A stretch of 64,000 bases of DNA from an uncultured virus (IMG/VR IMGVR_UViG_3300021400_003815) (taxonomy: Duplodnaviria > Heunggongvirae > Uroviricota > Caudoviricetes). The stretch lies in IMG/VR virus record IMGVR_UViG_3300021400_003815; one strand, 5' to 3'. Numbering within the stretch: the first letter of the stretch is position 1; every line of letters begins with the position of its first letter. Made by a program: the position numbers and the translations under genes. The notes beneath the pieces are model-generated. The model was not told where the DNA came from and searched no databases. It worked only from the letters and a program-made list of their open reading frames with translations. This document shows positions 30,320 to 56,806 of this stretch, piece after piece.

Positions 30320-31402
30320 TTAATCACCAGGTACTAATTCCTCACCAAGGTCTGTATTAATTAAATTATAGATATATGTGTAATCAGGTGTATATCCAGA
30401 TTGAGCCGCATCTTCAATAGTTGCAAATTTTTCTCTTACGTCCAATGTACTAATTACAGTGCTTGGTATTTGACTCTCATAGCAATATAATTTTCTATCT
30501 ACACCATTTATCTTTCTAACATATCCTATAACTTCAACTCTTCTAGCAACCTTAAAACCACCAAGTGATACTTGTCTCCTTGTAACTTTTCCTGTAAAGT
30601 CACCACCATTAAATATAAACAACAAACTTGGATAATTTATGCTATTTATACCTGACTCAGTGTCCTTCATAGGAATATAAAAATTATATGTTACACCACC
30701 TTGCATCTGATATTTCTTTTCAATAGCATCTCTAAGATTATCAGTGATTGACTTACTTATTGCTCCTCTTACAAGTGTATCATTTATCTTATAACCTGTC
30801 AGCTTACTAGCATCTTCAGCTTTAGTATAGTCTGTAAAATATACTGGAGTTCCATTATTCTTTAGCAATATTCCTTGTCTATCTGCTAAATGCACACTAT
30901 AAACTCCTTTAATACCACTTGCTTTTTGTTCTGCTTCTGTCAATGCTTTTGAGTTATTATATACTGTTAAAGTATAAGGTCTTTTCAATGACCACATCAA
31001 AGGATGTATTGTATTCTTACTTTCATCCTGTATTGACTCAAAATCAGATATGTAATATCCATCATTACAAGCCATTAGAGCTGCTACTATATTATCTTCA
31101 ACAGCTTTCATATTTGCTTCACTAGTTGACATGTTATAATTTATACACATCATTCTTTCAAATATGTCTAATGAATTTTCAGGATTGAGTGTTATATTAT
31201 ACAAGTTGCTATAATCATTTTCAAGAGTTCCAGTATCTACAGCCTCAAGAAATGCTGCTTCAGTACAATAATCTAAAGCTGTGTCTAATCTCTTTGTATC
31301 AAATGCTTTATTTATCAAATCTGTTCTATTATAAGTTATTAACAATGTATAACTTAATATTACAAATGTTATTGTATTTAATATTGGTCCAAACCATTTC
31401 AT
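30320..31402 (-). CDS. Minor pilin-like protein (TadE/G-like)
   Basis: N-terminal hydrophobic helix then RLDTALDYCTEAA helix; last gene of the cluster. Confidence 0.55.
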   Translation of the reverse strand: MKWFGPILNTITFVILSYTLLITYNRTDLINKAFDTKRLDTALDYCTEAAFLEAVDTGTLENDYSNLYNITLNPENSLDIFERMMCINYNMSTSEANMKAVEDNIVAALMACNDGYYISDFESIQDESKNTIHPLMWSLKRPYTLTVYNNSKALTEAEQKASGIKGVYSVHLADRQGILLKNNGTPVYFTDYTKAEDASKLTGYKINDTLVRGAISKSITDNLRDAIEKKYQMQGGVTYNFYIPMKDTESGINSINYPSLLFIFNGGDFTGKVTRRQVSLGGFKVARRVEVIGYVRKINGVDRKLYCYESQIPSTVISTLDVREKFATIEDAAQSGYTPDYTYIYNLINTDLGEELVPGD

Positions 31403-31414
31403 ATTTAAACACCT

Positions 31415-31888
31415 TTAAGAAACTACCTTTGCAAATGTAAAATCTGTCTGCCTAAGCTCTATCTTTAATAATCCCCAATACAATTTACTAGCTGCATCTT
31501 TAGATATCTCCTTAACTGCAACTCTAACTGTATCACCCTTATTTAAGTTATGTACTACCTGACTCGGGTCAGTTGCTACATTAGCATCAGCAGATATATA
31601 CATTGTTTTCATTTTACCATCAGGAGTTACTACACTTGTTCTAACAAGTCTTGTTACTTCACAATCAATGGTTATTCCATGTGAGTTAAGATTCATATTA
31701 AGCTCATCTATATCAGCTTGTGTTATCTTACCCTTATCTGTGACCTTATCCAAAAACTCTGAAGTCTCATTCATTATTGATAGCTGAGCTGCACCTCTAT
31801 CATTCAAGAAACTTAAATTTATAGGACCTAACACTAATATTAAGAAAGCCAGCATTAAACTAAATATAGTATTCAAATAATTTGTCAT
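31415..31888 (-). CDS. Pilin-like protein
   Basis: 157 aa, N-terminal TM helix plus small alpha/beta domain; within the Tad-like locus. Confidence 0.55.
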   Translation of the reverse strand: MTNYLNTIFSLMLAFLILVLGPINLSFLNDRGAAQLSIMNETSEFLDKVTDKGKITQADIDELNMNLNSHGITIDCEVTRLVRTSVVTPDGKMKTMYISADANVATDPSQVVHNLNKGDTVRVAVKEISKDAASKLYWGLLKIELRQTDFTFAKVVS

Positions 31889-31907
31889 TTCATATCTCCA
31901 AATCTAC

Positions 31908-32450
31908 TCAGTCTACTTGTTTTATTTCAAATGTCTCTACATTAGATACATTTTTATTTATTACATTTACATCTCCCTCATCTGATTCACCAGTACCAAG
32001 CTTAATGCTACCATTTTCATTTAATAAGTATGCTCGTTCTTGCTTATATGTCTTTGTATAACTTACATCAAACTTAGTATTATCACCATTTGAACCTATA
32101 GCTTGCCACATAGCTTGCAAATAAGAATATTGAGCACTTCTACTTAAACTATTTATCTCTAACAGGTTACCGTTATAACCTAATGATTTAGGAGAAGGCA
32201 TCATACTGTCTTGTATTTGAGTCATTAGCACAACCTCATATTTATTAAGTGTACCTGCTTTCTCATTATGTAATGCAACTTTGCTACCTACTATATCATT
32301 TGTATTTTTATCTTCATATATGTAGCTAGAACTTGTTTTGCTTATATGATTTTCAGAATTAGCTAGTGTCATAACTCCAATTCCAAGAGACACACCCATA
32401 ATCAATATAAGTAGCATAGCCTCAAATATATCACTTGAGTTCTTATCCAT
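31908..32450 (-). CDS. Pilin-like protein
   Basis: MDKNSSDIFEAMLLILIMG N-terminus paralogous to neighbours. Confidence 0.6.
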   Translation of the reverse strand: MDKNSSDIFEAMLLILIMGVSLGIGVMTLANSENHISKTSSSYIYEDKNTNDIVGSKVALHNEKAGTLNKYEVVLMTQIQDSMMPSPKSLGYNGNLLEINSLSRSAQYSYLQAMWQAIGSNGDNTKFDVSYTKTYKQERAYLLNENGSIKLGTGESDEGDVNVINKNVSNVETFEIKQVD

Positions 32451-32470
32451 AAACTCTCACCACCCTATAT

Positions 32471-32884: not shown

Positions 32885-32899
32885 ATCTTAATACTCCAA

Positions 32900-33700
32900 T
32901 CATAAATGTTCCCATACTGCATATAATGTAACTGTTGCTCCATCTACAGAAGTTAACATTGAACCATCAGCTTCATCTTCTAACTCCACAGGACCTCCAG
33001 CTTTTCTACTCCAACCTATAAACCTATATCCTGCTTTAGAAAATATATTCTCTAACAAAGGAGTTGCTGACTCATAAACCATTGTCTGCACAGGCATTTC
33101 AACTATAGCAGATATACCTGTATCATTTCCATTACCATTAAATTTTATCTTATAACTTACTGTATTATCAAATATAAACTTTAAATCTCTTACATCATAT
33201 CCCTCGATGTGACTATAATACACTGAATCAGTAATTCCAATATCACTGTTTAGTATTATATGGTCAGTAAGATATTTCAAAGTCCATATCTCATCTCCAT
33301 CTTTACCAGCATCAAATAGTTGTCTAGCTACATCACCACTATATTCTCTATATTTCTTTCCGTTGAGTTCTACAATACCAATTCCTGTCTCACTCTCATC
33401 TTTAACAGCTACATAGTACTTAAACTCATCATTATACTTTAATATAAGATTTACTATATCTGAACCAGATACTTTTCTTTTACTATGTAGCCCATCAACT
33501 TCTCCGCCATCTTGTGTTTTATTACTGAATTTATATATTAGCTGCTGTAATTCAAATTCTCTTACAGCTGCTTGATTCATTTCTCTACTCTTTATTATTC
33601 CTTTTCCAACACCATTTAAGTATATCAGAAATAACATTACAGTTGAGAATATCATAGCTAGTACTCCAACCTTCAGTAATGTACTTGAATTTTTCTCCAT
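32900..33700 (-). CDS. Pilin-like protein with C-terminal InlB B-repeat (Listeria-Bacteroides repeat)
   Basis: MEKNSSTLLKVG N-terminus; YKIKFNGNG...FSKAGYRFIGWS...GATVTLYAVWE. Confidence 0.7.
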   Translation of the reverse strand: MEKNSSTLLKVGVLAMIFSTVMLFLIYLNGVGKGIIKSREMNQAAVREFELQQLIYKFSNKTQDGGEVDGLHSKRKVSGSDIVNLILKYNDEFKYYVAVKDESETGIGIVELNGKKYREYSGDVARQLFDAGKDGDEIWTLKYLTDHIILNSDIGITDSVYYSHIEGYDVRDLKFIFDNTVSYKIKFNGNGNDTGISAIVEMPVQTMVYESATPLLENIFSKAGYRFIGWSRKAGGPVELEDEADGSMLTSVDGATVTLYAVWEHL

Positions 33701-33721: not shown

Positions 33722-34138
33722 TCAGTCTTTTATCTCTTTTATTACCGGAACTAATGTAACATTCTCAGCCCAGCATGTTTTATTCACTTTCTTTCTAATG
33801 TTATCATAATCTTCTATCTTGATTCCCCTAGCCTTTAATATGCTAGGTGTTGTATAAAATGTTCCATCTTTATTTAACTGTCTTAAATAACACTCTCTGT
33901 ATCCACTATATATTAACTTCATAGCTAATACAGTTTTCTTAAGTATCTTTCTGTTTTCCTCAGAGTCTATAATCCAAAGACCTGATATACACTCAGGACT
34001 TAACAGAAGCTTTCCACCATGCTTTATATATTCAAGTGCCGCCTCTTGGTCACAACTGAATACATTATAATTAGGATTAGCCTTTACTATCTTTAAACCT
34101 GTGCCCTTAAAATCTACTATTGATATACCTTGTACCAT
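33722..34138 (-). CDS. Hypothetical cytoplasmic protein within the pilin cluster
   Basis: 138 aa, no TM helix. Confidence 0.65.
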   Translation of the reverse strand: MVQGISIVDFKGTGLKIVKANPNYNVFSCDQEAALEYIKHGGKLLLSPECISGLWIIDSEENRKILKKTVLAMKLIYSGYRECYLRQLNKDGTFYTTPSILKARGIKIEDYDNIRKKVNKTCWAENVTLVPVIKEIKD

Positions 34139-34792: not shown

Positions 34793-35539
34793 TTACTTCT
34801 TCTCAGAAATCTGGATGAATACTACTCCACAATATGCTCCAGAAGCATCCTTAACAACATAGCTGTTAAATCTTGATGTAGGAGCGATGTACTCTAACAT
34901 ACCAGTCTTTGAGAAATTCTTAATAATTCTGTTCTTCTGAATTACTGAGTTCTCTACTGTGAAACCAGCCTGGCAATAGAACTGACCTTCTCTGAAAAGA
35001 AGCTTGTTACCATTTGAACCACTTGATGCTGCACCAGTATCAAGTAAGCTACCATAGTTGATTAAGTAACAATCAACACTATTGTTTATAGCACCATCAA
35101 CCTTAAATTTTCCGTCTAAACCAGTTATACCATTTGCACTGTCGTTATTAAATACGTATACCTTCTTAAGATATCCACCCTGTGAATCAGCTGTCTGAAG
35201 TCTACTATTCTTATCTCCATAAGCATCAGTAATTCCCTTGCCAGTAGATACACCGGAACCTTTGCTATCAATAAGCTGTGATGTTCCGATAAGAACTGCT
35301 ACATCACTATCTGAGAATGTGTTGTAAGCTGAAACAACCTGTGTACCTGTTACTACCTTCTGGTCGAAATCAGTAAAATCACTGTCCTGCAGTGCAGTTA
35401 CTGTTTTCTGAACTCTGTTTGTACCTGTATTCATAAGTGTCTTACCAATTACGAATACTAGAATAATAATTGCGATAATGGCTGCTGCCATTGTCAAGTT
35501 GGAACCGGTAAATATACCTTCTCTTGCATTGTCACCCAT
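34793..35539 (-). CDS. Putative major pilin-like subunit
   Basis: MGDNAREGIFTG plus hydrophobic helix; FTDFDQKVVTGTQVVSAY; strong AAAGGAG RBS; first of the cluster and followed by a terminator. Confidence 0.65.
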   Translation of the reverse strand: MGDNAREGIFTGSNLTMAAAIIAIIILVFVIGKTLMNTGTNRVQKTVTALQDSDFTDFDQKVVTGTQVVSAYNTFSDSDVAVLIGTSQLIDSKGSGVSTGKGITDAYGDKNSRLQTADSQGGYLKKVYVFNNDSANGITGLDGKFKVDGAINNSVDCYLINYGSLLDTGAASSGSNGNKLLFREGQFYCQAGFTVENSVIQKNRIIKNFSKTGMLEYIAPTSRFNSYVVKDASGAYCGVVFIQISEKK

Positions 35540-35692: not shown

Positions 35693-37705
35693 TTACAAAT
35701 TCGTCATTTGAGTTGCAAGCTTCTGAATCTCTGATATACCTAAAACAATTATAGGATATAGCACTGTACCAATTACTAAGCTATAATTAGGAATCTTTAT
35801 GTACATATCACATAAGTTCTTGTTCTCATCAATTGTTTTCAATGCTGTCATCTTTTTAATACTGTTTATGTATTCTCTTTCAATTATCATATCACTGAAA
35901 GCTTCTTTTAGACTCAAATCACTGATGGTTAACTTTAACTTATCTATGAATCTCTTAAACTCTACAATGTTAGTTTTACTTGATAACCTAGCCAATTCCA
36001 ATTCAGGATTAGAAGGAAATCCATGATAACAGTATGTCAGCATATCTTTATGTATCTTAGATATTTCAGTCATCTGTTCCAAAGCTTCAAGTGTATCACA
36101 GTTACTTGTCATAAGAATAGTCATCAATGTTTGAAGCTGCATGAAATCTTCTTCAGCCTCTGTCTTTACCAGCTTTGTTCTAAGATTAAGATGCTTATTA
36201 GGAATAAACCAGCCAAATAAAGCTACTACAAAGACAACTATTAAATAATAGAACTTCCAACCTATTGACTTAAGAGTCTCATATTTCTTTATAATTCTTG
36301 TTGCTTGGTCTCCTTGCTCCATACCTGTTAAACCAGATACATGATTTGCAACAAACTCTGTTGCTTCCTCAAGCTCCATTACCTTACCTCGTGCATCACA
36401 CTCAGCTATAAAGGCATTATCCATTGCTAATAGTTCTTCTTCTGAAGGTCCTTTTTCATTTACAGAAGAATCAGCTATCAAACCTATACTAGCTGTTGAA
36501 TTAACTAGTACATTATAGGAAATCTGAGGTGTACTTATAACAAGCATTAATGACAATGCACCAAGTGTAATAGCTAATACAAGCTTCTCTAAATAAAACT
36601 CAAGTATTGTTTTCTTACTAAGTGCTTTATCTAACTTCTGTTGAACTAATCTTCTCTTTGCGTTCTTAGGAGCATATCCTGCAACAAAGTTGTGTATCAC
36701 TCTATTTTTCAACAAGTTACTAACAAATTCGTTTCTGTCATTCTCTTGCATTGTTTGCATTGTGTTTATCTCACTAACAACGCTATAAACAATTATAGAT
36801 GATAACAATATAAATACTCTGATACCATAACCTATTAAACTTGAGTAAATTACAAATGTTCCTGGCATCATCTTAGTGATTGCCATTTCAATTATCTTGA
36901 TTAGGAACAACGGAGCTAATGCTAAATTCTCCATATTACCGAACTTAGACTTTTTATACTGTATTCTTTCAAGCTCTAAGTTTATATCGGTACTCATTAA
37001 TGTAAGTGCTTGTATGAAACTTGATTGTCCATGTGAATCAACTTCATCACCTATATTTGCTACGTTATAACATACACGAGCTAATGTCTGTACAGTTCTA
37101 AATGGTGTTCTCTGTATGAACTCTTGAAGTCTTATCTCACCATTACTGTTTGATAAAATATTTTGAATGTCATTAATAGATATCTTTAATCTATCTCCAA
37201 CTTCACACTCCTGTATAGCTTCTGTAACACTGTTCAGTCTTAAATACTCTTGTCTTAATGAAGATATTGTCACTCTTAACTCTTTATATACTTCAAAATA
37301 AACTCTGTCTATCTTCTTATATATCAAGTTATTACTTATAACAGCTGAGAATGCAAAACATACTAGTAAACTAACTATATCTCTATAGAGTGCTAATGTA
37401 ACACCTATTATGAATATCATAGCCGCCATAGATGTTAAATAATAACTAGCAGCTGTAGCATACATATCTCTAGTAGAATATGTACATGTCATTCTGAGCT
37501 GTTCTGTAATCTTTCTTAGCTTATTACCACTAAGAGGAAATGCATATAGCTTCTTATAAGCCCAGAGTAAAATCTTTATTTTTTTATTTTTTCCCTTTTT
37601 TCCTTTAAAGTTCTTCTTATAAACTCCAACCAGCATAAAGGCTGATAGTCCAACAGCTATTGCACAGCCAAGAAGAATTAAATCAGATACTTCTAAACCT
37701 AACAT
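35693..37705 (-). CDS. TadB/TadC-like (GspF-type) membrane platform protein, apparently fused
   Basis: 670-aa multi-pass protein with two cytoplasmic helical domains each followed by TM helices; downstream of the TadA-like ATPase. Confidence 0.7.
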   Translation of the reverse strand: MLGLEVSDLILLGCAIAVGLSAFMLVGVYKKNFKGKKGKNKKIKILLWAYKKLYAFPLSGNKLRKITEQLRMTCTYSTRDMYATAASYYLTSMAAMIFIIGVTLALYRDIVSLLVCFAFSAVISNNLIYKKIDRVYFEVYKELRVTISSLRQEYLRLNSVTEAIQECEVGDRLKISINDIQNILSNSNGEIRLQEFIQRTPFRTVQTLARVCYNVANIGDEVDSHGQSSFIQALTLMSTDINLELERIQYKKSKFGNMENLALAPLFLIKIIEMAITKMMPGTFVIYSSLIGYGIRVFILLSSIIVYSVVSEINTMQTMQENDRNEFVSNLLKNRVIHNFVAGYAPKNAKRRLVQQKLDKALSKKTILEFYLEKLVLAITLGALSLMLVISTPQISYNVLVNSTASIGLIADSSVNEKGPSEEELLAMDNAFIAECDARGKVMELEEATEFVANHVSGLTGMEQGDQATRIIKKYETLKSIGWKFYYLIVVFVVALFGWFIPNKHLNLRTKLVKTEAEEDFMQLQTLMTILMTSNCDTLEALEQMTEISKIHKDMLTYCYHGFPSNPELELARLSSKTNIVEFKRFIDKLKLTISDLSLKEAFSDMIIEREYINSIKKMTALKTIDENKNLCDMYIKIPNYSLVIGTVLYPIIVLGISEIQKLATQMTNL

Positions 37706-37716: not shown

Positions 37717-39510
37717 TTACTTATACCATACAAATTTGAAGTTTCCACAGTCATATATCCTAACATATCCAAGTCTGTTCATGGTTTCTTTTTCTGTCTC
37801 GCCGCTTATCTTAGAGTCACCAAGATTTTTTGCCTGTGCTTCATATCTAGATTTAACTTCATTTGTCTCTAGATTTACCCACTTATAATTAGGTTCTGTT
37901 ATACCCATCAGGTTAAATCCTAGCTTATTATAGATATTACCATCAAATTTTGTTATATCACAATAACTTAGTATGTTATTAGGTTTATATTCAGATAAGA
38001 ACTTAGCAAATAGTTTCTCTGTTCCACCAACAACAGCTACATCATATCTCCAACACAGTCTTATTAACTCCCACTCATAGCCACTATTAAATCTTGGTGC
38101 TCCAAATGACATTATACCTATTAAGTTATTTTTATAATAGCATCCATAAGTTACTGAAGCTTTTGCTCTGTTTTGAATATGATACTTGTCAGCAAATTCA
38201 TATCCAAGTGCATTTTCTATTCTCTGCACTGTGCACATTCTAGCATATATTTTAGTTAATTTGTCTCCATATATTTTATTGCTAAGTATATGCTTTATCT
38301 TTTCTCTAGTTAACTGATTATTCCACTCATACTCAAAGATATGAAACAATCTTACACCCTTACTCATTGCAAGTAGTGATTTATTTTTATGATAATCTTT
38401 ATCCTTTTTAAGTTCACTGTGCCAGTAGTTCCCATTAAACTCTATTCCGAACTTCAACTCAGGATAATATAAGTCTATTTCCTTTCCATCAAGCACATCC
38501 CTATCACCTACATGATTACAAGGATACATAGTCTGAAGTGCTTTTTCATAACCGCTCTCTTCTTGTATGCCTATCTTTACATAATCCGATATATCATACT
38601 TATTTATATAATCTTTAACAGTTCCCCTAGATATACCAAGCAATTCAGTAAGTTCATATATTGTAGGTTTTTCTTTAAATGTTTTCTTTATTTCAGCCAA
38701 AAGATTTTCTCTACTCTCTACAGCTTTCAACTGAGATTCTGTCCTTGTAGTTCCTATCTGTGAATGATGCCTAACTCCATATCTTATTAATTCAGTCTTT
38801 GCTCTATTGTCTCCCCTTTTGCACCCACATGACTTACTTAATCCATACTTTAAACTATGTGAATCTACCACACTGTACTTTCCACAAGTACATTTACATA
38901 CCCAGTATGTTCTTTTATCATCATTATTATCACTATGTGCTTGTTCGATTACCTGCCAATCTCCAAATGTCTGTCCTGTTAAATCAACAAGTCCTGTTGT
39001 ACTATGTCCACAGGACTTACTTAAACTATTTCTTAATTGATATCCAGTTAGCTCTCCTATATTACCGCATGAACATCTACATTTCCACTTAGCTTTATCT
39101 TTTAAATATTCAAGTACTGTCCACTCTCCAAATGTCTGTCCTTTTAAATCCTGAAATGCATTTGAATTACTATGTCCGCAACCCTTACTCTTTCCATTTC
39201 TTAAGTCTGAACCACTTACATCTCTGATTGTTCCACAAGAGCATCTGCACTTCCATTTTTTATTTCCTACATATTCAAGTACCGTCCATTCACCAAATGT
39301 CTGACCTGTTAAATCAATTCTTCCTTTAGGACTTTTACCTGTCTGACATACACATTTAGGAGCTTGTCTCTCTAAGAAATATTTATTAATAACTCTTTCT
39401 CTGTTACATAAGTTGCATACACAGTTATAATTACTTTTCCCTAAGTATTCTTTAACAAACCAGTTGTCTATTGTTTGATTTGTTAAGTCATTTTGTACTT
39501 TTCCACCCAT
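37717..39510 (-). mobile_element. Free-standing homing endonuclease-like gene (Cys-rich repeats, PD-(D/E)XK domain, GNAT/Mom-like C-terminus)
   Basis: Four DLxGQTFGxW...WKCRCSCG...SCG repeats, three spaced exactly 165 bp; EIDLYYPELKFGIEFNGNYWHS; IYARMC...WELIRL...SYCD...GNIYNKLGF. Confidence 0.8.
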
Positions 39511-42523: not shown

Positions 42524-43189
42524 TTACTTTTTAAATAGTCCACCCAACATTGACTTCTTAGCCTCAGCCTTTAAATATTGGTCATGACTAAGTAAATCTG
42601 TAAACTTTGTAGCACTTACTTCTCCTATTGCTGAACCTATATAACCAAGTATGCCACCTAACTCTTTACTACTGAAAGGAATTATCTCTTTATATTCATC
42701 AACTTTCCATAACCAGATTAACTCATTACTTCCAATGTGAAATCTTTTAGTATCTTTCTTATCCTTTACAGTATTTGATGTTATTGATATGTCTACTATC
42801 TTAGCTTTCTGATCCTCTAATAAACTGTCTTTAATTTCATTAATTCTTTTATTAAGAGCATCCCCTAAGAATGACCTATCATCACCATGTACTACTACAA
42901 TCTTATCAGCTTTGTAATTTATATAAGTGTTACTTGCATATATTACAAACTTTGGTCTTTCTTTTGAGAACTCTATGAAATCACCATACTCATCATCTCC
43001 TGTAAGTTTCTCTTTATAACTAATTATGATTCCATGACAGTTACCAATGCTACTTCCAGTTTCAAGAAGTCTTGTAAACTCATTATTATCTGTAACAATA
43101 GCTGTTTTACCAAGCAACTGACATGCTCTTGCTATTGGTAAAGCTATTATTCTTTTATCAACATTTCCAACTATTGATAATATCTTCAT
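42524..43189 (-). CDS. Hypothetical protein of the Tad-like locus (possibly degenerate P-loop fold)
   Basis: 221 aa, AAGGAG RBS, between cpaB-like and cpaE-like genes. Confidence 0.6.
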   Translation of the reverse strand: MKILSIVGNVDKRIIALPIARACQLLGKTAIVTDNNEFTRLLETGSSIGNCHGIIISYKEKLTGDDEYGDFIEFSKERPKFVIYASNTYINYKADKIVVVHGDDRSFLGDALNKRINEIKDSLLEDQKAKIVDISITSNTVKDKKDTKRFHIGSNELIWLWKVDEYKEIIPFSSKELGGILGYIGSAIGEVSATKFTDLLSHDQYLKAEAKKSMLGGLFKK

Positions 43190-43317: not shown

Positions 43318-44301
43318 TTAATTACTTGCCTCTTCTGCCTGTGCTTGCTCAGCAGCTGCTCTAGCTGCTATCTCAGCTTCTTCCTCAGCTCTCTTCTGCT
43401 TAATTCTCTGTTCCTCAAGCTCTCTTTCAATTACTCTGTCATACTCAAGTTTAGCACTTGTATATGTATTTTCCATCTGAGACTTAGCTGAAGCAACCTC
43501 ATTTATAAGGTCATTAATGTTTTCATCACTAGAATTTAGCTGTCTTTCAAGCAAATCTCTGTCAGCTGTACTTAAACTACTGAAATCCATTGTTACGTTA
43601 GGGTCCTGAACCAATGTTGTCATAGTCTGTAATCTAACAGGATAATAATCAGCACCTGCTAACTGTGCTCCACCCTCAATGTACTTTACAGCTGATATAA
43701 CAGTTCCCTTATAAATAGCTCTGTCTACCTTCATACTCTCATAAACATAAATGTCTTTAGGGTCAACTATTAATTTCAGTACATTACCATTAATAGCAGC
43801 TACTCTCTTATGAGTTATACCTGTAAATATCTGACCAAGTGTAAATGAAATATTTACATCAACATAATCACCAACCTCAAGTCCTATAGGTGAAACATCA
43901 ACGACTATATCTAACTCTCTCATGTTATCATCAACACTGAAGTCCATCATCTGATTATATGAAAGAACTTGACCTTGCTTAATATCATACAAATAGTACA
44001 TTCCATTATAATCATCTTCAACATGAGGACAGTTAGTTGTCATTGCTACTGGCATTTGAACTTCTCTTAACTGTTCAGGTGAAATCTTTGTTCCACCATG
44101 TACATCCTCAACCAGCTCATAAACTGTAGTCAGCTCTCCAGTATAATTTATCTGAGTCTGTAAATCATTTATCTGTGTCTGAGCATCTGCTATCTGAGTT
44201 TCATACTCATTCATCTGAACATCAACCTTATGTTTGTAAAACAAACCTCCACCTACAAGTGCTAGCACTACAACACCACCTGCTATGTATTTAACTTCCA
44301 T
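43318..44301 (-). CDS. CpaB/RcpC-like SAF-domain protein
   Basis: TM helix plus coiled coil; VYELVEDVHGGTKIS...DIKQGQVL (SAF); MRELDI...GLEVGDYVDVNI. Confidence 0.75.
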   Translation of the reverse strand: MEVKYIAGGVVVLALVGGGLFYKHKVDVQMNEYETQIADAQTQINDLQTQINYTGELTTVYELVEDVHGGTKISPEQLREVQMPVAMTTNCPHVEDDYNGMYYLYDIKQGQVLSYNQMMDFSVDDNMRELDIVVDVSPIGLEVGDYVDVNISFTLGQIFTGITHKRVAAINGNVLKLIVDPKDIYVYESMKVDRAIYKGTVISAVKYIEGGAQLAGADYYPVRLQTMTTLVQDPNVTMDFSSLSTADRDLLERQLNSSDENINDLINEVASAKSQMENTYTSAKLEYDRVIERELEEQRIKQKRAEEEAEIAARAAAEQAQAEEASN

Positions 44302-44317: not shown

Positions 44318-44971
44318 TTATAATATGTATTCTATAATATCTCTTAATGTATCTATGTTATCTAACCTTCTTGTCATAGTTACCTCAGAGTTATTAACTA
44401 TTCTTAAATAGCTTCCATCAGCATCTTGTAAGTAACAATCAATAAACTTATCAGTTTCTATTAGTCTTACAAGTCTACTTCCACTATTCAAATTCTTACT
44501 TATATATTTATAAGTGCCTTCCCTATCTAATTCATATGTATTAGCTGAAATCAAGTAGTCACTCAATTTAAACTCATTAAAATCCAACTTCTCAATCTCA
44601 TTTACATCTTTATCATTGGCAAGCTCATTCTTGAAATTACATATTTTAGAAGACTGTATTTCTTTACCATTTTTATGTACTGAATATAATACATCAGTAC
44701 TAAAATTATACCTTATAACCTCATATTCATCATACTTGTCTTTATCATTTAATTCATATGCCTTTACAACTGTCATATGAGCTGTCTCTACTTCATTGTT
44801 CTCATTCTTTACTACTGTATTACTACTATTTCCTTTAGTATTAAACACTATTATAAACAATATCACTATTAAACCCACAATAGGTAATATCAGCTTATAA
44901 TGCTCTTTAATAAAATACTCTAAGTTTTCAATTAGCTCCTTCACTTTCTCCATTTGCCTCACCTTGCTCAT
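44318..44971 (-). CDS. Membrane-anchored hypothetical protein
   Basis: Single TM helix LILPIVGLIVILFIIVF. Confidence 0.65.
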   Translation of the reverse strand: MSKVRQMEKVKELIENLEYFIKEHYKLILPIVGLIVILFIIVFNTKGNSSNTVVKNENNEVETAHMTVVKAYELNDKDKYDEYEVIRYNFSTDVLYSVHKNGKEIQSSKICNFKNELANDKDVNEIEKLDFNEFKLSDYLISANTYELDREGTYKYISKNLNSGSRLVRLIETDKFIDCYLQDADGSYLRIVNNSEVTMTRRLDNIDTLRDIIEYIL

Positions 44972-46157
44972 CAGTCTCAGCCTTAGTTTCTAAAGATTTT
45001 TCATATTTCTCTGCCTCTATACTCTCCTGTATGCGTATCTCTTTAGGTACTAAGTCTAAATATCTACTTACTTGTGCATCTTCAGATGATTCATTCAGCT
45101 CCTTTATGTACTCACTCTTATTATAATCTGATAACTTATTATTATCTACTGTAGAATCATCTTCGCTATCAATGACTATATCATTATAATTTATATCATC
45201 AAAAATAATTCTTTCAGTACTTGTCATTACATTAGGATAATCAGCCATAAACCAATCATATAACTTCTGCCCTTCTTCTTGATAAAGAGTTAAAGGATTT
45301 ACATACTCAGTATCTAACAAAACATCAAAATAAACTTTATCTTTTTTATGAACTATTCCTATGCTATCATACTGATTTACACTATCACCTATGTTCACTA
45401 AAGGCTCATCTATATACCAATAGGTAACTTTCAAATAGTTTCCACTGTTTATTTCAATGACATATTGTCCATTGCTATCTGTATATATGTTATTTACTAT
45501 GCCTTTTAATACACTTATAATTGTATTATCTTTACCCTTATTGAGATTGAGATATAATCCATAGTTGTACTTATTCTCTCCATTATCATTGTAATAACCA
45601 AAAGGAAGTCTTATATCCATCTCCTTTTGACCTTCCACTATTGACTTAGTGTATTGACCTAAATCACCATAGTCATCTACATCATATGATGAACCTTTTA
45701 TATAATCTATATATGCTTTACTGTCTACAAATTTATTCTCTATTGTATCTACATCCTTTATATTTTCATACTTTTTTAATTTTAACTTGTAATCGCTCTC
45801 CAGCTCATCAAATTGGTCATAAATGTTAAATAGATTTTGTACACTGGCATTCTCAGTAAATGCCTTGTCAAGCTCTTTTACTTTATTATCATAAATTTCC
45901 TTACTTTGCTCATACTCATCTTTATACAGCTCTTTAAGATTCATACTCAAAGTATAATTAGCATATCTATTCTGATCTTCAACATCTTGGAAGTCTTTTT
46001 CTATCTTCTCTGCTTCCATCAAAAACTTACTGTTATCAGACCTCAATCTACCATACATCTGTCTTATATCATTCAAGTTTGCCCCGTACGATATATTAGA
46101 TATATTTAAGCTTATAAATACACTTAACAAGACACACAAATTTTTATATAATCTCAT
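44928..46157 (-). CDS. Secreted coiled-coil + M23 peptidase-like protein, Zn ligands absent
   Basis: Signal peptide; PFGY...YNYGLYL...ISVLKGIV...GQYVIEI...TYWYI...VNIGDSVNQYDSIG...VYFDV...YVNPL. Confidence 0.7.
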   Translation of the reverse strand: MRLYKNLCVLLSVFISLNISNISYGANLNDIRQMYGRLRSDNSKFLMEAEKIEKDFQDVEDQNRYANYTLSMNLKELYKDEYEQSKEIYDNKVKELDKAFTENASVQNLFNIYDQFDELESDYKLKLKKYENIKDVDTIENKFVDSKAYIDYIKGSSYDVDDYGDLGQYTKSIVEGQKEMDIRLPFGYYNDNGENKYNYGLYLNLNKGKDNTIISVLKGIVNNIYTDSNGQYVIEINSGNYLKVTYWYIDEPLVNIGDSVNQYDSIGIVHKKDKVYFDVLLDTEYVNPLTLYQEEGQKLYDWFMADYPNVMTSTERIIFDDINYNDIVIDSEDDSTVDNNKLSDYNKSEYIKELNESSEDAQVSRYLDLVPKEIRIQESIEAEKYEKSLETKAETDEQGEANGESEGAN

Positions 46158-52200: not shown

Positions 52201-55200
52201 TATAACTAGCGCCATCAAAATCAGCATTTACATAATGTCCACTTTCATAATTAACTGTTCTATAACCATAGTTAATTACGTTCATAGGAGAACCACTACC
52301 TTGTGTTCCTATGAATCTTGATTCATGACCATCAGTAGGTTTAACAACAAGGTTGTTACCTGTCTTATCTATAAGTGAATCTCTTACAAATTCAGATGAA
52401 AATCTTCTAGTATTCAGTCCATTTAATTCCCGCACAGCACAATCATCAATTTCTGGTATCATCTTTATACATACTATACCATCACCCTGATCTCCATAGC
52501 TGCCATCATTATTATAATGTAATCCTATGAAATCATCTATAGGTTCATTATGCTTCCACTTGCCATTCATTTCATGAACTACTGTTGTATTACCACCTGC
52601 TGATAATGAAGAGAACTTTCTTAAAGGTGAGTTAAACTTTCCATTATAACCACTTACTGGAATTTCATCTGTTATATCCCACTTTGAAGCTACTACTCCA
52701 TCAGGCAGTTTAAAATCTGTCCACATCTGGTCAAATGTACGCTTCAGATAGTCATCACCATATCCATCACTAGAAAGATTCCTATTGTTAGATCTACTCC
52801 AATCATTATCCCTATAAGCCCCAGCGGCTGCATTATAACCATAAATGGTTAATTCATGAGGCTGATTACTATTTATTGATGCCCCAGTTGACTCTGCTAT
52901 AGCTCCACTTTCATTTAAGTTGTCATCCATCTTAGTTATTTGCTTCCATACGCCACCAAAGCTTGCTGTTCCACCAGGAGCTGCATCTCCATCTGTCCAG
53001 AAGTATACATGATGCCAATAAGGAGTTGTATCAGAACCTATATTCTTAACATTTTTAGAAGCTGCTGCATCTGCATCATAATCAAAGTTATTATCAGCAC
53101 TTCTCCACTGAACTGATGAATTATAATAAGCTACTTCATCACCTTGAGTTGTCTGCAATATCAAGAAATCAGATACTACAGTTATATAGTTCCAAAGTTC
53201 TCTTCTATGTTTAAACCTCAGAACCTCAGGTGTTTCCATATCATATCTGTCAATGGTGTTATTAGTAGTTGCACCACTAATCTTATCACCCCTTACATGA
53301 TGATACCACCAAGTTTCATCATTGGTAGTTCTATTAGTATTAGTATATAATGCACCACAAGACCATACTTGACCTTTCTGGTCATTCTTATTACAATTAC
53401 TTGTTCCTGAACTTCCCTTAGCTTCTGCTTGAGTATTCTTAATGTTCTTTCTACCACTTCCAGCTGCTACTCTAAATGGATTTGTAGAACATCTTGTAAA
53501 ACAGCCTTGGTCTCCGTTACATCTGTTCGACCTTGTACCCTCATTCCAACCAACACTGTCATATTGGTCAGGCTCAAGGCTATAAACTACTCTTCCTGCT
53601 CTAGCTACATGCTCAGCAAATGTTCTATCAGGTATTTCACCGTGACTCTGATAATAGTCTAACTGCTTCTTACTTTCATTATAGTAATCTTTATTTTCAT
53701 CACCAATGAAGTAATAAATGTTAGGGTCGCCCTGAACCATATCAGCTACAACATTATTTTGCTTAGTATATGTAATTTTATTCATTCCATCTACATAAGC
53801 TCTATCAATCTTCCATGTCTTTACACTATCTATTCTCATATAGCTATACTCAGCAATCTGAGTCCAGTTATCTTCAATAGCAGGTAAATCATGTTCGCAA
53901 CAAGGTCCACAAATTACATGAGCAGGTATTTTTACTGTAGCAGTTACTGTCCAAGTAACATCTGCACCCTTCTGAGCTTCAGCATGTGCAGGGTCAAGAA
54001 CTTCATGTGGAGGATCTCCTTCATCATGTGAGTTATGTCCATCTGATGCTGATGTATCAGCAGGTTCATTTGTAGGCATAGCAGGTAAACTTATACTACA
54101 TCCATTGCCACCTAACTTTATTTGTCTAGTTACATTATCACTAGAAGCTGTATAATATATACTGGTATTTGCTACTTCTTGTGTCCACTTGGTTAATGCT
54201 TGATATGCTGCTACTCTAGATTGCATATCAGCTGGTCTTGACTTATGTGGGTTATTAGCTGTAACGTCACCCATTCCATCAGCTGCTACAGTATCAGGGG
54301 CATCATTATGAATTGTTCCGCCTATTGTTATACTCATCTGTCCACCAGTATGAACATTAAATGTATAACTTTCACTCTGAACGCTAGCTTCTCCACTACC
54401 AAAGTTCTTATTAATAGTAGGAATTACATTAGCTCCACCACCACCAGAGTTACCCTGATTTGCTATCCAGCCTAAATCATTACCACCAGTGTATCCGCTC
54501 TCGCTATATGTTCCAGCCTTATCAGCTTCTTTATATTCACAAGCTGTACCTGAGAACTGGCTATGATAGTATCTTCTTGAACGCTCCTTAGGTATATAAC
54601 TCATATGAAGTTCAAGAATAAACTCACTACCACCAGCTGCAAAATACAAAGTCTCTGTACTAGGAACACCAGCCATAGCTTCCCAAGTTTCATTAGAGCT
54701 TGTTCCACTACCTGTCTGAACTGTACCTTCCTTTATTTCAGCATATGCTTTTGGCTTACTGTGGAAAGAAGTATGCTGAATGCCCTCAGCCTTTACAGGA
54801 TAGTCTATTCTCTTAGCAGTAATATTATTACTCTGACCACCTATTCTTATCTCAGACATTCCACTGTCTTTAGTTCCATAATATACAGTCACATAAACCT
54901 TATAATTTAAAGTTGTAGTACTTCCATTAGAAATTTTCTGGTCTTGTGTACTATCATCTTCTATTAAATTAAATGGTTGCTGTCCTAATAAAAATCTTCT
55001 AAGATTATCCTTGTTCCATCCTAAGTAACTTAAATCAACAACACTGTTATTTGTATAACCCTTACCATTAATAAGATAATTAACAGTGTTCATTGCAATA
55101 CCAGCACTGTTATTAGCTGTTCTTGAAAGCTCTATCTTAACCTTAAACTTATCATTATTATCAATAATATTGCTTACATCAACATTATTATTTAATTTAC

Positions 55201-56806
55201 CATTTATACTAACAGTAACCTCATTTCCAATAGTTGCAAGTAAGTCAGAACCCTCATGCCAGTTACCAAGTCCATTTGTATAATATCTAAGGGTTTCACT
55301 CTCATTGCTGTTGCCCTTATTGAACATCTTGTTATTATCAGTTTCATGCCAGACATTACCTATAACTCTAGTAGTATCTGTCATTAGACCATCAACACTG
55401 TTGCCCCAATAAGCTGTAACAACAGCATTTTGAGACTTTTTATATGTCTCCATAGGTAATCCCATGATTACCTCTAAGCCCTGATGTGTTCCTTTACTTG
55501 TGCTAATTGAAATATCTTCAAGAGCCTTAAAGGTACCACTAGTGATTGTCTTATCTTCAGGATCTTTTGTTACTAAATAACCTAAAAGTTCATTCCAATA
55601 TTTATTGTCTCTCCAATAGCCTTCCCTAAGTCCATTTTCTCTACTCTTATTAAACGCATTTTTCAGAATGTCTCTAGTATTTATTACTGACTGCTTAAAA
55701 TAATAAGAAGCTGCACTCTTATTTCTAACATCATTGCTTGCATCAATTCTATACAGATAACTAATAAGGTCTGCTGCATTTATAACAGTTAAGAAATCCT
55801 GATTTGAAACAGCCTCTGTCTTTTTAGTTCCCCAAATGAGACCTCTTGATAATACAACGTTAGTTTTGTTATTTGACTGTAATCCTAACTTTCCACCACC
55901 GTCAGAGTTCAAATAAAGAATAATAGCATTTCTCCACTCTGACTCTGCTGCTGTTCCCTTAGATACACTATATAAACTCATCAGCATATCTAAATAATGT
56001 ATAGACTGTATCTGCTTATCCTTAACTGACATACTAGCTGTATTTCTAATTGTACTTATGCTAGTCTTAAACCATTTGCTATACATTACATCTTGTAATG
56101 AACCCTCATTATACATATCAGATAATGTACACCAAATCTCAGTATTATTAGCTTGAGATACCTTGTCTACAACACTCTCAAAACCGTATCTACCACTTGA
56201 ATCTTTTTCTAATAGTTTCTCAGTAGCTATACCACTTTTAATTTCTGTTGAACTATCAGATGTAGACCAATAAGCTGACCAATAAGGGTCTTTAATTTCT
56301 ACTCTAGAACCCTTAGTTGACCTTACAAGTCTCTTATTATTAGCAATGTTAGATGTGGAAAGAGTATTATTGCTATAAATACCCCAAAACTGATTCTTAT
56401 ATTTAGTAAATATATTATTATTTGAATAACTAGAACCAACAATAGCTAAAGAGCTATCGTTAGAACCCATTAATCTACTACCATAAAAATCATAAATTCC
56501 ATCAACTCCACTATTGCTTGAGTTTAAATCCAAAAATGGTGCCCCTTCATCATCATTGTCCAAAGACACAATAAGTGGAGCTCCTTTCTGAGTTCCACTT
56601 GGATTTAAAACTTCTGGATTTGTTAAATCTGCTCCACCACCAATGTATGGATTGAACCCATCAGGAGTTTTACTGATATTATCTGCACTAACAGTTACTC
56701 CAAAAATTGAAAGTGTTAGATATATCATTAGTGTCAGTAACCAAACAGACGAAGCTACTAACCCATTTTTAACTAAGTCTCTTGTACTTAATCTAGCACT
56801 TAGCAT
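46280..56806 (-). CDS. Giant exported protein (3508 aa) with LamG-like and two glycine-rich domains; putative adhesin or substrate
   Basis: AAGGAGG RBS; N-terminal signal/TM; FNYTGGTQYYTVPETGYYRIDAYGASGG...IIVAGGGGG...GGGGSSY-type domain twice; Cys/His-rich motifs. Confidence 0.8.
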   Translation of the reverse strand: MLSARLSTRDLVKNGLVASSVWLLTLMIYLTLSIFGVTVSADNISKTPDGFNPYIGGGADLTNPEVLNPSGTQKGAPLIVSLDNDDEGAPFLDLNSSNSGVDGIYDFYGSRLMGSNDSSLAIVGSSYSNNNIFTKYKNQFWGIYSNNTLSTSNIANNKRLVRSTKGSRVEIKDPYWSAYWSTSDSSTEIKSGIATEKLLEKDSSGRYGFESVVDKVSQANNTEIWCTLSDMYNEGSLQDVMYSKWFKTSISTIRNTASMSVKDKQIQSIHYLDMLMSLYSVSKGTAAESEWRNAIILYLNSDGGGKLGLQSNNKTNVVLSRGLIWGTKKTEAVSNQDFLTVINAADLISYLYRIDASNDVRNKSAASYYFKQSVINTRDILKNAFNKSRENGLREGYWRDNKYWNELLGYLVTKDPEDKTITSGTFKALEDISISTSKGTHQGLEVIMGLPMETYKKSQNAVVTAYWGNSVDGLMTDTTRVIGNVWHETDNNKMFNKGNSNESETLRYYTNGLGNWHEGSDLLATIGNEVTVSINGKLNNNVDVSNIIDNNDKFKVKIELSRTANNSAGIAMNTVNYLINGKGYTNNSVVDLSYLGWNKDNLRRFLLGQQPFNLIEDDSTQDQKISNGSTTTLNYKVYVTVYYGTKDSGMSEIRIGGQSNNITAKRIDYPVKAEGIQHTSFHSKPKAYAEIKEGTVQTGSGTSSNETWEAMAGVPSTETLYFAAGGSEFILELHMSYIPKERSRRYYHSQFSGTACEYKEADKAGTYSESGYTGGNDLGWIANQGNSGGGGANVIPTINKNFGSGEASVQSESYTFNVHTGGQMSITIGGTIHNDAPDTVAADGMGDVTANNPHKSRPADMQSRVAAYQALTKWTQEVANTSIYYTASSDNVTRQIKLGGNGCSISLPAMPTNEPADTSASDGHNSHDEGDPPHEVLDPAHAEAQKGADVTWTVTATVKIPAHVICGPCCEHDLPAIEDNWTQIAEYSYMRIDSVKTWKIDRAYVDGMNKITYTKQNNVVADMVQGDPNIYYFIGDENKDYYNESKKQLDYYQSHGEIPDRTFAEHVARAGRVVYSLEPDQYDSVGWNEGTRSNRCNGDQGCFTRCSTNPFRVAAGSGRKNIKNTQAEAKGSSGTSNCNKNDQKGQVWSCGALYTNTNRTTNDETWWYHHVRGDKISGATTNNTIDRYDMETPEVLRFKHRRELWNYITVVSDFLILQTTQGDEVAYYNSSVQWRSADNNFDYDADAAASKNVKNIGSDTTPYWHHVYFWTDGDAAPGGTASFGGVWKQITKMDDNLNESGAIAESTGASINSNQPHELTIYGYNAAAGAYRDNDWSRSNNRNLSSDGYGDDYLKRTFDQMWTDFKLPDGVVASKWDITDEIPVSGYNGKFNSPLRKFSSLSAGGNTTVVHEMNGKWKHNEPIDDFIGLHYNNDGSYGDQGDGIVCIKMIPEIDDCAVRELNGLNTRRFSSEFVRDSLIDKTGNNLVVKPTDGHESRFIGTQGSGSPMNVINYGYRTVNYESGHYVNADFDGASYNNGKWSRSIGGMDSKNYQYKVTQYKSSPYTTSSSGQSLDGAHEDVGSTHAEYRIKRPNESLKIFTDRVHPWPVQNGWENDKKTYEHGIRQDATNENGEYVTGNAYVFYRQILDYTRPSMEDGNTNFQYDYSNSNIAALGNKSGIAIKAVYSDEHDKVNNIVVQDPVSLEEAFLIGLDDERDQRSGGANLAVKLMNDLEASKVCPGTAALCEYRHLNCKYFDDVVLGTFNVSGGKLVNTKTGRSYSMPSGFSTSEGGVKLGGVRLSIPFSELNYAYNASSNIQVEFSAKIPKKVNNTFMLVSFKQYDLYNTDWGTVINTGRGNERGVPNNYRDNLWHKYKVIFNMDTAESSKLYIDDMEVDYKTVGTSNKLSANMVGNYFNIGCWNADDNYGKSNAIIKDLKITKLAARGTHVSSCYKTEEVHSTTVQYVAIPKKFNYTGGTQYYTVPETGYYRIDAYGASGGDNLSGVKIAAPSAGGLGGYASGEAYLLKGQRLAINVGGQGGLNKAGWNGGGTSAGSGYGGGGASDVRATRVFTLNDKMKEGGNDTYVKGGHITYGPYITVPSGTYNVTIYGAGLNDSTIVLDTMTNNGVSYGRYIASNGSNTGLNNLSVSYNKISYSVNINKNVAEGADGAGLEFRIFHNGRSYRFDRIEVSSSDVNNRIIVAGGGGGADNAGGVFNNTDDGSGGYGGGLTGGNPKQDGARVGGLVGTQNSGYALASGQGRTDTDAGGGGGGYFGGKAGTNGNTGGGGGSSYISSVRNGYTTYGVRKGDGQVVITALDPENSPASERKVVSSINNKHVHKESCVVGTSEAYKQNAALIGAFYQDAQNDSTALKALLGNTVYNLYKSSSYNQTDLTGRVDFGYSASAQKFTAKSAGNYTFDVYGASGGGNSAGHESAGGLGGRVTASKYLNAGESVYIYTGQAGGGSGSIGSNWNYGPYMGGGKGGPGGFDGGGMTLVSTSPNESIKSGNRLTTTYVAAKNYYQVIPVYGDGTYKVLEFYSELEATYPSLTFHSTNGHMSNFYLVDTSNGSTIADTGNVHTGSYDPVDATMTNVHFNAGHTYELYVHSDCSNFTGTCGAGFTINGGNVEVLENTTTGTFTPGKALIIAGGGGGADNTDYSGTVQGGNDDGSGGAGGSDGNIGNPLVNGARQSGLYASYRQGAGESTTKNTDTGGGGAGWYGGKSTNNNNGGAGGGSNYTGSGVTLAAQYSGVNSGNGKVIITYVSEADLQKIYNAIVNIVAKNVNKLPSTVNGAKNPVFICDGTYNTHVCDSRCKVEKHLTCSDPHHKNPAEHYPGSNPICWEPCGYTDPNDPNNPHAHHDKDIVVDGVTKKAGKFLNIDYGFQVYFPNTGDFEDDPDLRGIGAVTQVKGMSYKNNMDTTKWLREKRIKFGYDVLFYNPTTGKWEEYKANTWIPLPILKDSSKFDTDYSEFSSPEWFKQHALEVYDFYVTMSNVDIAGARYDFEIEAVNAEHSAGGKSAVYNRKVVNRTEERNIDNVSTLSNSARNNALSAKHSASKHGFTDIVGRIGNLLITDTDDIRFANLFKLPVEGTWLIDGVVKGVNSGIQNNYLSWHNNSDGRWLDIRGVQVTPERGMYNTWMTENWAEDKDWAASHGSIIGSKDVPLPLTSDKNNVTQLLADMFKPGYNILYEISTLGSYSDNLQVIPYFYALDTKTNKLYPIDVYMKEEDEYVPINYYDVLPKTTDSSSEKAKKQKLINEEHKYVLSLDWAEEKERRNYTTQEKLITNYITDHYNYIIDDGGTRHKLNSPDTIVGTGHALGTIQLINADQYARTFIGSTYTRGENFNATAVDDSNTGVFSPISVGGGTHYTNLDNIIYRDRFWTNAQRWHLKLGLPSTAVFIKYNKDGIRHLPTEELVDESGNPIIKDGGEHKLKFEELQDKRYAIIMTAEIYAYGDTYTLKYDQKNLNGKAKIGNKTYTFGTNYNGQEIKGTIMAVYDAEGSSDLDVTIRGSH

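Follow-up and report, generated by a model that had tools for sequence, protein, structure and literature searches.

A divergent Tad-like gene cluster with a putative membrane-anchored ATPase and a fused platform protein recurs across Bacillota

Tad pili, the type IVc filaments, are well studied in diderms and in Bifidobacterium, and the Tad machine belongs to the same superfamily as the type II secretion system (T2SS). This kinship is among the subjects treated by Denise et al. 2019 (PMC6668835). Genes named 'Tad pilus components' have been noticed beside the type VII secretion system (T7SS) variants T7SSg and T7SSh in passages that leave the link open (Garrett and Palmer 2024, PMC11217815). 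On the plasmid pBsph, Xu et al. 2015 (PMC4363355) recorded a 'pilus assembly ATPase' in the company of VirB4/VirD4/VirB6-like genes, and a 2026 paper describes the pBsph-like p1593 as conjugative. The locus considered here lies at positions 30320-56806 of a 64,000-nucleotide stretch of DNA (the whole of which is called the window) from an uncultured virus, IMG/VR record IMGVR_UViG_3300021400_003815. An earlier note, made from the letters of the window, had proposed at this place a non-canonical Tad-like system coupled to a 3508-residue exported protein. Judged by its proteins and their relatives, the locus encodes a Tad machine of a distinct and widespread form, rather than a machine of a new kind, and giant mobile elements are not its only home.

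The cluster is more than a chance arrangement, its synteny being conserved across 113 other loci. The loci come from a one-genome-per-species scan (34 loci) and a metagenome scan (80 loci, or 79 without L038, the 167-kb contig to which the window itself belongs), and synteny was established by BLAST of the window proteins against all open reading frames (ORFs) of both sets. The conserved order is giant protein (optional), LytM-like protein, transmembrane (TM) protein (optional), SAF protein, 221-amino-acid (aa) protein, TadZ-like protein, ATPase, ~670-aa membrane protein, and then the small proteins g248, g168, g266, g137, g180 (the last three optional), g157 and g360. Of the four helix proteins at the end, g157 and g360 are the most widely conserved, and both are kept even in the distant IMG/VR locus L154. 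The co-oriented order described earlier is thus borne out, with the corrections given below, and all of its ORFs are found at the positions assigned to them, on the minus strand. Most of the genes are separated by 5-21 bp and two pairs overlap, the spacing one would expect in an operon.

Direct scans of the window proteins with Pfam and NCBIfam profiles give mostly weak matches. The ATPase falls just under the cut-off of Pfam T2SSE (E 1.9e-5), the M23-like protein falls under its own cut-off, and the SAF protein lies just over. The 670-aa membrane protein and the small proteins downstream match nothing in these scans, save a Flg_new domain on g266, and Pfam T2SSF is not detected in the 670-aa protein by the Pfam scan. 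The assignments below draw on family profiles, structural models and conserved positions.

The closest solved relative of the ATPase is CpaF (E 7e-11 in the PDB), ahead of archaeal GspE (1e-5), PilT (3e-3), FlaI and VirB11. Its best NCBIfam model is TIGR03819 ('TadA family conjugal transfer-associated ATPase'), at E 2e-10, a match whose score falls far short of the curated cut-off. The intact Walker A/B motifs and Asp/His boxes read earlier from the window hold across the family: the Walker A sequence (GRQGSGKTT), the acidic boxes and the HHAN histidine box are invariant in 21 aligned homologues. The N-terminal TM helix is likewise a family trait: 41 of the 42 family ATPases have it, against none of 11 canonical TadA, PilB and PilT proteins. 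With a ~240-aa N-terminal extension, the 682-aa protein is ~200 aa longer than canonical TadA.

In a quick maximum-likelihood tree of 53 rows, rooted at the midpoint and built from a set free of archaeal, GspE and VirB11 references, the 42 family ATPases form one clade (SH-aLRT 99, stem of 2.73 changes per column). The clade adjoins seven canonical TadA/CpaF rows, five of them from the carrier genomes themselves, with PilB and PilT outside. The earlier note had named nesting of the ATPase inside canonical Tad clades as a result that would speak against it; the quick tree places the clade beside them. Within this 53-row sample, and to that extent, the aligned sequences make the ATPase family separate from canonical TadA. 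Copies from giant elements intermingle with Lachnospiraceae chromosomal copies in the same tree, which suggests a host among the Clostridia and exchange between elements and chromosomes.

The 670-aa protein was compared with TadB and TadC profiles drawn from canonical loci, those of the carrier genomes together with those of Alkaliphilus and Rhizobium. Its N half (residues 60-330) matches TadB (hhalign 96.3%, P 1.9e-9, 226 columns) and its C half (360-670) matches TadC (44.5%, P 2.3e-4, 179 columns); reversed-profile controls reach at most 2.1%, and TadB against TadC, the positive control, gives 97.6%. Because of these matches and their controls, the protein is, at the level of profiles, a TadB-TadC fusion, and the single TadB/C-like platform of the earlier note stands. 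The fused form is family-wide, with lengths of 640-700 aa in most of the best 150 representatives. The AlphaFold model is all-helical (pLDDT 84) and holds about eight hydrophobic segments. Foldseek with the full-length model returns no match, and a wide structural search places the PilC N-terminal domain on top (Z 9.0, 101 of 103 residues, model residues 514-617), with a PilC model at Z 8.4, EpsF at Z 7.6 and SpoIIIAB at Z 6.7 below it, the matches covering model residues 514-630 overall.

Upstream of the ATPase, the 291-aa family aligns with the canonical TadZ/CpaE profile (hhalign 97.4%, P 1.4e-11, 181 columns; reversed control 0.9%), which upholds the CpaE/TadZ-like assignment. Only TadZ profile positions 126-318 take part, corresponding to the MinD-like domain and not to the receiver-like part. 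The P-loop of the 291-aa protein reads GNTT, lacking the lysine, and its MinD/ArsA matches in the PDB are weak. The 221-aa family has no match in PDB profile searches, and the receiver-like part of TadZ scores 4.1% against it. The CpaB/SAF-like protein of the earlier note contains a genuine SAF domain (Pfam E 2.2e-4, 22.1 bits against a cut-off of 21; the family profile also matches the FlgA SAF domain, E 0.001) and is kept in the conserved synteny, but its score with the CpaB model TIGR03177 lies below the cut-off (E 0.003, 16.8 bits against 71). The protein called M23-like does give a weak Pfam M23 match, but the window copy lacks the HxxxD and HxH catalytic motifs; both motifs are kept in 8 of 21 homologues and neither in 12, the window copy among these. 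Its best NCBIfam match is SpoIIQ (E 2.4e-5, a score far short of the cut-off). The 217-aa TM protein is poorly conserved, with a BLAST homologue in L004 only.

The system is common in Bacillota. ATPase homologues in public metagenomes number more than 1275 at 59-73% identity, on contigs of up to 447 kb, several of them near 337-350 kb. The 34 genome loci belong to Lachnospiraceae (Anaerocolumna, Mobilisporobacter), Vallitalea, Acetivibrio, Paenibacillus and Cohnella, and complete chromosomes, for example of Anaerocolumna and Paenibacillus, are among them. A platform profile retrieves 1081 representatives of 50%-identity clusters at E <=1e-3 and 635 at <=1e-30, the latter nearly all of 640-700 aa. 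With the same profile, 31 of 400 Clostridia genomes in the sample give a match (a further one being unscored), as do 37 of 401 sampled Bacilli genomes, a frequency of ~8-9% of sampled Bacillota species, or about one in twelve. The cluster also sits on many plasmids of 100-540 kb, including pBsph of Lysinibacillus, pCY360 and pCY186 of Butyrivibrio, and others of Paenibacillus, Cohnella, Thermobacillus, Alkalihalophilus and Clostridium. The association with a giant mobile element, as first proposed, is therefore not specific, since chromosomes and these plasmids carry the operon as well.

Two further observations concern the carriers. Of the 31 Clostridia genomes with a match, some twelve are very small, at 1.1-1.5 Mb, and have similar platform scores (E 1e-113 to 1e-131); this suggests either that the system is common in a single lineage with small genomes or that the bins contain elements of this sort. 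Some genomes, several Bacilli among them, hold two copies from two deep subclades; in an Anaerocolumna chromosome (G001, 2,643,799-2,646,771) the two ATPases measure 679 aa and 608 aa, each with a platform.

In GenBank phages no platform homologue is found, and the sole ATPase match (24%) is in an unverified faecal contig. IMG/VR scans with the ATPase sequence, the ATPase alignment and the N-part of the ligase described below find nothing, and a scan with the platform alignment yields one record, of 185 kb (L154/G806). In that record a sub-threshold Terminase_6N match lies inside a RecD-like helicase, no HK97 capsid match is seen, and FtsK-domain proteins occur together with a weak VirB4-like match.

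Of the eight ORFs downstream of the platform gene, all but one (33722-34138) encode a protein with a single hydrophobic helix, placed at its N-terminus. The leaders are short and usually acidic and end in G or A, followed by ~20 hydrophobic residues; by eye they resemble the leaders of the 57- and 62-aa Flp proteins in the canonical Tad loci of carrier genomes. In g168 homologues from genome loci, [GA][IV]E[YF] opens the helix in nine of nine. Some loci (L063, L070, L076, L080) have two or three g248 genes, and the g248 model consists of a helix of 54 residues (3-56) followed by a beta-rich domain (pLDDT 74; residues 102-154 unmodelled). In the ESM Atlas, g248 and g360 fall into unnamed clusters, and one g248-like cluster is labelled mostly viral (from five members with known phylum). 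The C-terminal domain of g266 is Pfam PF09479 (Flg_new, the Listeria-Bacteroides repeat; E 1.6e-6), and the L008 counterpart has the same domain. We infer on good grounds, and do not report as a result, that the seven helix proteins are pilins. The seven pilin-like genes of 137-360 aa in the earlier note are accordingly kept as far as their N-termini and the helix-plus-beta model go, but neither a pilin fold nor the classical motif was recovered.

The carrier genomes also contain canonical Tad loci, with a Peptidase_A24 (A24) prepilin peptidase, a TadA of 404-423 aa, separate TadB and TadC and Flp proteins of 57-62 aa, and because of this the present system is regarded as a distinct, paralogous one. 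All five carrier genomes tested have A24 genes, located beside canonical Tad or type IV pilus genes far from the present locus.

The giant protein contains glycine-rich ALK_LTK_GRD-type modules in its middle part (PF12810 E 5.8e-19, phrog_7388 E 8e-36). Its C-terminal ~700 aa (residues ~2800-3508) have homologues in 25 loci, and its N-terminal 500 residues have none. A weak relationship (24%, E 1.4e-8) connects it with a DUF5704 protein encoded downstream of the cluster on pBsph; a literature search on DUF5704 found no paper. Among the 34 genome loci, 5 have a homologue of the giant within 10 kb of the cluster, and among the 79 other metagenome loci, 25 do; its place is usually upstream of the cluster, in some cases downstream, and many of the loci are too short to show whether one is there. 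Linkage of giant-protein homologues to such loci elsewhere, on which the earlier note had made its proposal depend, is thus seen in ~30 loci, as a frequent and not a universal neighbour. Recurrent neighbours also include an EssC-like multi-FtsK ATPase, within 10 kb of the cluster in 19 loci and accompanied in L027 by a WXG100-like gene, a VirD4-like gene near the cluster in L020 and L021, and VirD4, PrgI and VirB4 genes directly after the cluster on pCY360.

Taken together, these features make it fairly probable that the region encodes a filament machine of a divergent, monoderm-adapted branch of the Tad (type IVc) family with a role in contact, the giant protein being its adhesin or cargo. 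In such a machine, the ATPase, hexameric in type and of the CpaF/TadA lineage, would be tethered to the membrane by its own N-terminal helix, and together with the fused platform would extract pilins from the membrane and polymerise a filament across the thick wall. Going by architecture, g248 would be the major pilin and the other six helix proteins minor pilins; their processing, if any, would require an A24 peptidase of the host. The LytM-like protein may bind peptidoglycan (the window copy) or cut it (copies with the catalytic motifs). Judging by the neighbouring genes, the filament would serve cell-to-cell or cell-to-surface contact, and the Sec-exported giant protein, with its conserved C-terminal ~700 aa accompanying the locus, would be the adhesin or cargo of the filament. 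Cell contact is needed both for conjugation and for the delivery of T7SS toxins, and giant surface proteins are typical adhesins; for these two reasons a contact or adhesion filament is favoured, and a cell-contact pilus is the leading inference on the role of the locus.

Several results weigh against this picture. No pilin fold was found for g248: a PDB profile search and Foldseek gave none, and the wide structural search matched the long helix only. The classical processing motif is of the G/xxxxEY type, and none of the 267 pilin-like family members has a G-x4-E-Y/F or G-F-T-L-I-E motif. As had been stated for the locus before, a prepilin peptidase is missing, with no Peptidase_A24 (PF01478) match among the 52 window ORFs scanned for Pfam families, and no Flp-sized hydrophobic ORF lies in the gaps of the cluster or elsewhere in the window. 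The TadC-like half of the platform is weak at 44.5%, and platform Z scores of 6.7-9.0 are within the range that helical bundles can reach by common arrangement. The ATPase tree is a quick one with long branches, a midpoint root and a reference set that excludes archaeal, GspE and VirB11 sequences. The giant protein is absent from many loci with full flanks, such as L008 and L004. No member is known to have a filament, adhesion or transfer phenotype. The adjacency to genes of T7SS and of the type IV secretion system (T4SS) may be coincidence, a caution also voiced in the pertinent passages of Garrett and Palmer (PMC11217815).

An unlikely alternative is a T2SS-like piston for monoderms, in which the giant protein, once exported by Sec, and perhaps further cargo would be driven through the peptidoglycan by a short pseudopilus of the small proteins. 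The giant has an N-terminal signal of its own, its conserved C-terminal module accompanies the locus in 25 cases, a LytM-like, wall-directed protein is encoded between it and the machine, and many minor-pilin-like genes stand against a single major candidate, all of which would suit a piston. However, many loci have no giant neighbour within 10 kb, the ATPase lineage is that of Tad and not of GspE, and a multicopy g248 is what one would sooner expect of a major pilin that is exposed at the surface and diversifies than of a hidden pseudopilus.

Distinctly improbable is a DNA-transfer organelle, either a mating pilus or DNA conduit working with the conjugation genes of the element, or a competence-type uptake pseudopilus. 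The occurrence of the cluster on many large plasmids, the adjoining VirD4, PrgI and VirB4 genes of pCY360, the VirD4-like genes of L020 and L021 and the name of the best NCBIfam model of the ATPase agree with it, as does conjugation of the pBsph-like p1593, though MOB-suite types pBsph as non-mobilizable. Against these stand the 64-kb window, in which VirB4, VirD4, FtsK and relaxase have no match, most chromosomal loci, which have no T4SS gene within 10 kb, and pXO16, the model giant co-oriented conjugative plasmid, which has no ATPase homologue; the separate VirB4/VirD4/VirB6-like genes of pBsph could moreover account for its transfer.

SpoIIIA works with a secretion ATPase and a GspF-like protein but has no pilus, and a SpoIIIA-SpoIIQ reading is a minor rival only. 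A fixed complex of bitopic proteins, energised by the ATPase and platform as an accessory to T7SS-like or other secretion, would explain why neither a pilin fold nor motif was recovered and would accord with the SpoIIIAB match of the platform's C-terminal domain (Z 6.7), the SpoIIQ match of the M23-like protein and the EssC-like ATPase adjacent in 19 loci, but it is very improbable given that the ATPase, platform, TadZ-like and SAF proteins together form a Tad core in Tad gene order, that the 23 NCBIfam matches of the ATPase include no SpoIIIAA model, and that the 54-residue helix, beta domain and Flp-resembling leaders have the look of pilins.

The coordinates of the locus are collected in Table 1.

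Table 1. Genes of the Tad-like locus in the 64-kb window.
Feature	Position	Strand	Basis or remark
Giant exported protein, 3508 aa	46280..56806	-	N-terminal hydrophobic signal, PF12810, phrog_7388
M23/LytM-like protein	44928..46157	-	Pfam M23 E 4.7e-6, below curated cut-off
Bitopic membrane protein, 217 aa	44318..44971	-	one hydrophobic segment, residues 27-45
CpaB/RcpC-like bitopic SAF-domain protein, C-terminal coiled-coil/charged tail	43318..44301	-	Pfam SAF
Conserved cytoplasmic protein, 221 aa, no fold match	42524..43189	-	kept in most loci
TadZ/CpaE-like MinD/ParA-fold protein, 291 aa, degenerate P-loop	41668..42543	-	hhalign
TadA/CpaF-like secretion ATPase, 682 aa	39598..41646	-	CpaF PDB match, TIGR03819, motifs
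Homing endonuclease, 597 aa, between ATPase and platform genes	37717..39510	-	phrog_3339
Fused TadB-TadC-like platform (by profile), 670 aa, ~8 hydrophobic segments	35693..37705	-	hhalign, model
g248, candidate major pilin, 248 aa, first gene past platform	34793..35539	-	helix + beta model, multicopy
g168, pilin-like, 168 aa	34156..34662	-	N-terminal hydrophobic helix
ORF without TM helix, 138 aa	33722..34138	-	window's contig only
g266, pilin-like, 266 aa, C-terminal Flg_new domain	32900..33700	-	PF09479, N-terminal helix
Four more single-N-terminal-helix proteins: g137, g180, g157, g360 (137, 180, 157, 360 aa)	30320..32884	-	hydrophobicity

One gene inside the locus, and probably a second, is foreign to the machine. 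The endonuclease that the earlier note had listed within the system is indeed present, but it belongs to the homing endonucleases of phage type (phrog_3339, E 5e-85), with homologues in 506 phage records, and is found in 5 of the 79 other metagenome loci, at differing positions, and in none of the 34 genome loci; in L008, 24 bp separate the ATPase and platform genes. The 597-aa protein is a mobile intruder and not a component. The 138-aa ORF has no homologue in any other locus and is probably an insertion rather than a component. In a 362-kb relative (L077:10001-12848), the ATPase match spans 2848 bases in BLAST pieces of 463 aa and 290 aa with a homing-endonuclease homologue alongside, and this ATPase gene is probably interrupted by a mobile endonuclease or an intein-like insert.

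The minus strand carries every gene of the window, the GC content is ~31%, and the coding strand is strongly skewed towards G over C. The window also encodes SmpB (22725-23183 (-), Pfam E 6.5e-54), guanylate kinase and an NlpC/P60-SH3 hydrolase; IF-3 is encoded in the flank of a relative (L058:21314-21733). No tRNA or tmRNA gene was found in the window, and no capsid, portal, terminase, Rep, relaxase, VirB4, VirD4 or FtsK match occurs within its 64 kb. The carrier may be either a huge phage or a megaplasmid, in any case a large, co-oriented, low-GC element.

The surroundings of the cluster show further features. A NAD-dependent DNA ligase is split into an adenylation plus OB part (61722-62939 (-)) and a C-terminal part (29338-30219 (-); phrog_3869 positions 391-653). 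The two halves are co-oriented, lie ~31.5 kb apart and bracket a module that runs from a ParB-HNH gene to g360. That gene (59613-61604 (-)) encodes a 663-aa fusion of a ParB N-terminal (nuclease-like) domain with HNH, at the upstream edge of the module beside the ligase N-part. The C-part also follows g360 in six relatives (L039, L058, L059, L063, L066, L077), and in the more distant L083 an 801-aa ORF after the cluster, possibly a full-length ligase, matches the N-part. The split could reflect insertion of the module into ligA or a natural, phage-style split. Directly downstream of the C-part (27241-29264 (-)) are two tandem SPFH/Band-7 membrane proteins of 310 and 357 aa. At 1372-3783 and 15719-17959 (-), two BspA-type leucine-rich-repeat (LRR) proteins of 803 and 746 aa are encoded, with a similar LRR protein in the L077 flank; they are further candidate surface or adhesion proteins of the element.

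A bolder and unlikely view is that a huge phage, or a giant phage-like element, of Clostridia carries here a complete Tad-like pilus machine of its own together with a 3508-aa adhesin, with which a carrier cell would build a contact organelle that grabs neighbouring cells and promotes spread of the element. If true, it would provide a virus- or element-encoded type IV filament for transmission, and in the Tad-like module the Gram-positive contact-dependent systems (T7SS toxin delivery, conjugation) would have their missing 'grappling' device. The differences fixed in the family (tethered motor, fused platform, large putative pilins, LytM-like partner) bear on how a type IV filament can be built through a thick wall without a dedicated peptidase. 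The repeated adjacency to T7SS variants, Gram-positive T4SS genes and giant surface proteins leads to a hypothesis testable in culturable hosts (Paenibacillus, Anaerocolumna, Lysinibacillus), namely that monoderms rely on a retractile or adhesive filament when they conjugate or kill by contact. The copy on a giant, co-oriented, phage-like element adds a mobile-element angle.

In the literature searched (Tad-like systems, Bacillota megaplasmids, jumbo phage pilins, Firmicutes CpaF), no dedicated and no experimental description of the family was found. The earlier note's view of an undescribed system holds in that respect, but the genes have been noticed as Tad pilus genes (PMC11217815, PMC4363355). 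The T7SSh example of Garrett and Palmer, Paenibacillus sp. HW567, is locus L034 of the present set, with an EssC-like gene ~5 kb upstream of the ATPase and platform homologues, so the present family is very probably that of their 'Tad pilus' genes. The pertinent passages of PMC11217815 cover adjacency only, and not the architecture, the spread beyond T7SS loci, the giant linkage or the giant-element copies. The pXO16 tip locus was considered as a model and rejected, the window ATPase having no match in the whole 349,600-bp pXO16-type record NZ_CP013277.

The Hodor conjugative megaplasmids (preprint PMC12934698) are Bacillota elements of giant size (>300 kb) that were at first classed with huge phages, an example of the confusions between huge phages and megaplasmids that do happen, and they encode giant secreted proteins in a conserved surface module thought to aid spread. 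They differ in a GC content of 44-47% and in having sortases and Sec genes, whereas the window is at ~31% GC with no sortase match; the words Tad, pilus, pili, CpaF, VirB11 and T2SS are absent from the preprint's text. The Kil apparatus of Myxococcus, as described by Seef et al. 2021 (PMC8460266) and compared by description rather than by sequence, is likewise a Tad-like machine for contact-dependent cell interaction, the role proposed here, but it is a diderm system with a secretin and has no giant-protein partner.

The closest match remains the Tad/Flp system (type IVc; Aggregatibacter tad, Caulobacter cpa, Bifidobacterium breve tad). Both have an ATPase of the CpaF/TadA lineage and a platform homologous to TadB and TadC, and the present locus adds probable counterparts of TadZ/CpaE (by its MinD-like domain) and of CpaB (by its SAF domain), in an order that runs from accessory genes through ATPase and platform to pilin-like genes, with a single ATPase and no PilT-like partner in the locus. 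The Tad ATPase is soluble and ~400-500 aa long, whereas the present one is predicted to be membrane-anchored and is ~200 aa longer. Canonical TadB and TadC are separate proteins with one T2SSF domain each, whereas here they appear as one ~670-aa fusion. The present TadZ-like protein lacks the N-terminal receiver-like part, the pilin-like proteins measure 137-360 aa against ~50-80 aa for Flp, and the locus has neither TadV nor a secretin, the latter absence being expected in monoderms. Extra conserved genes encode the 221-aa protein, the LytM-like protein and g360, and the ATPase clade stands apart from the canonical TadA of the same genomes. In conclusion, the anchored ATPase, the fused platform, the large pilin-like proteins and the lack of a peptidase in the locus sustain the earlier proposal as far as a distinct, type IV filament-like system within the Tad lineage is concerned.

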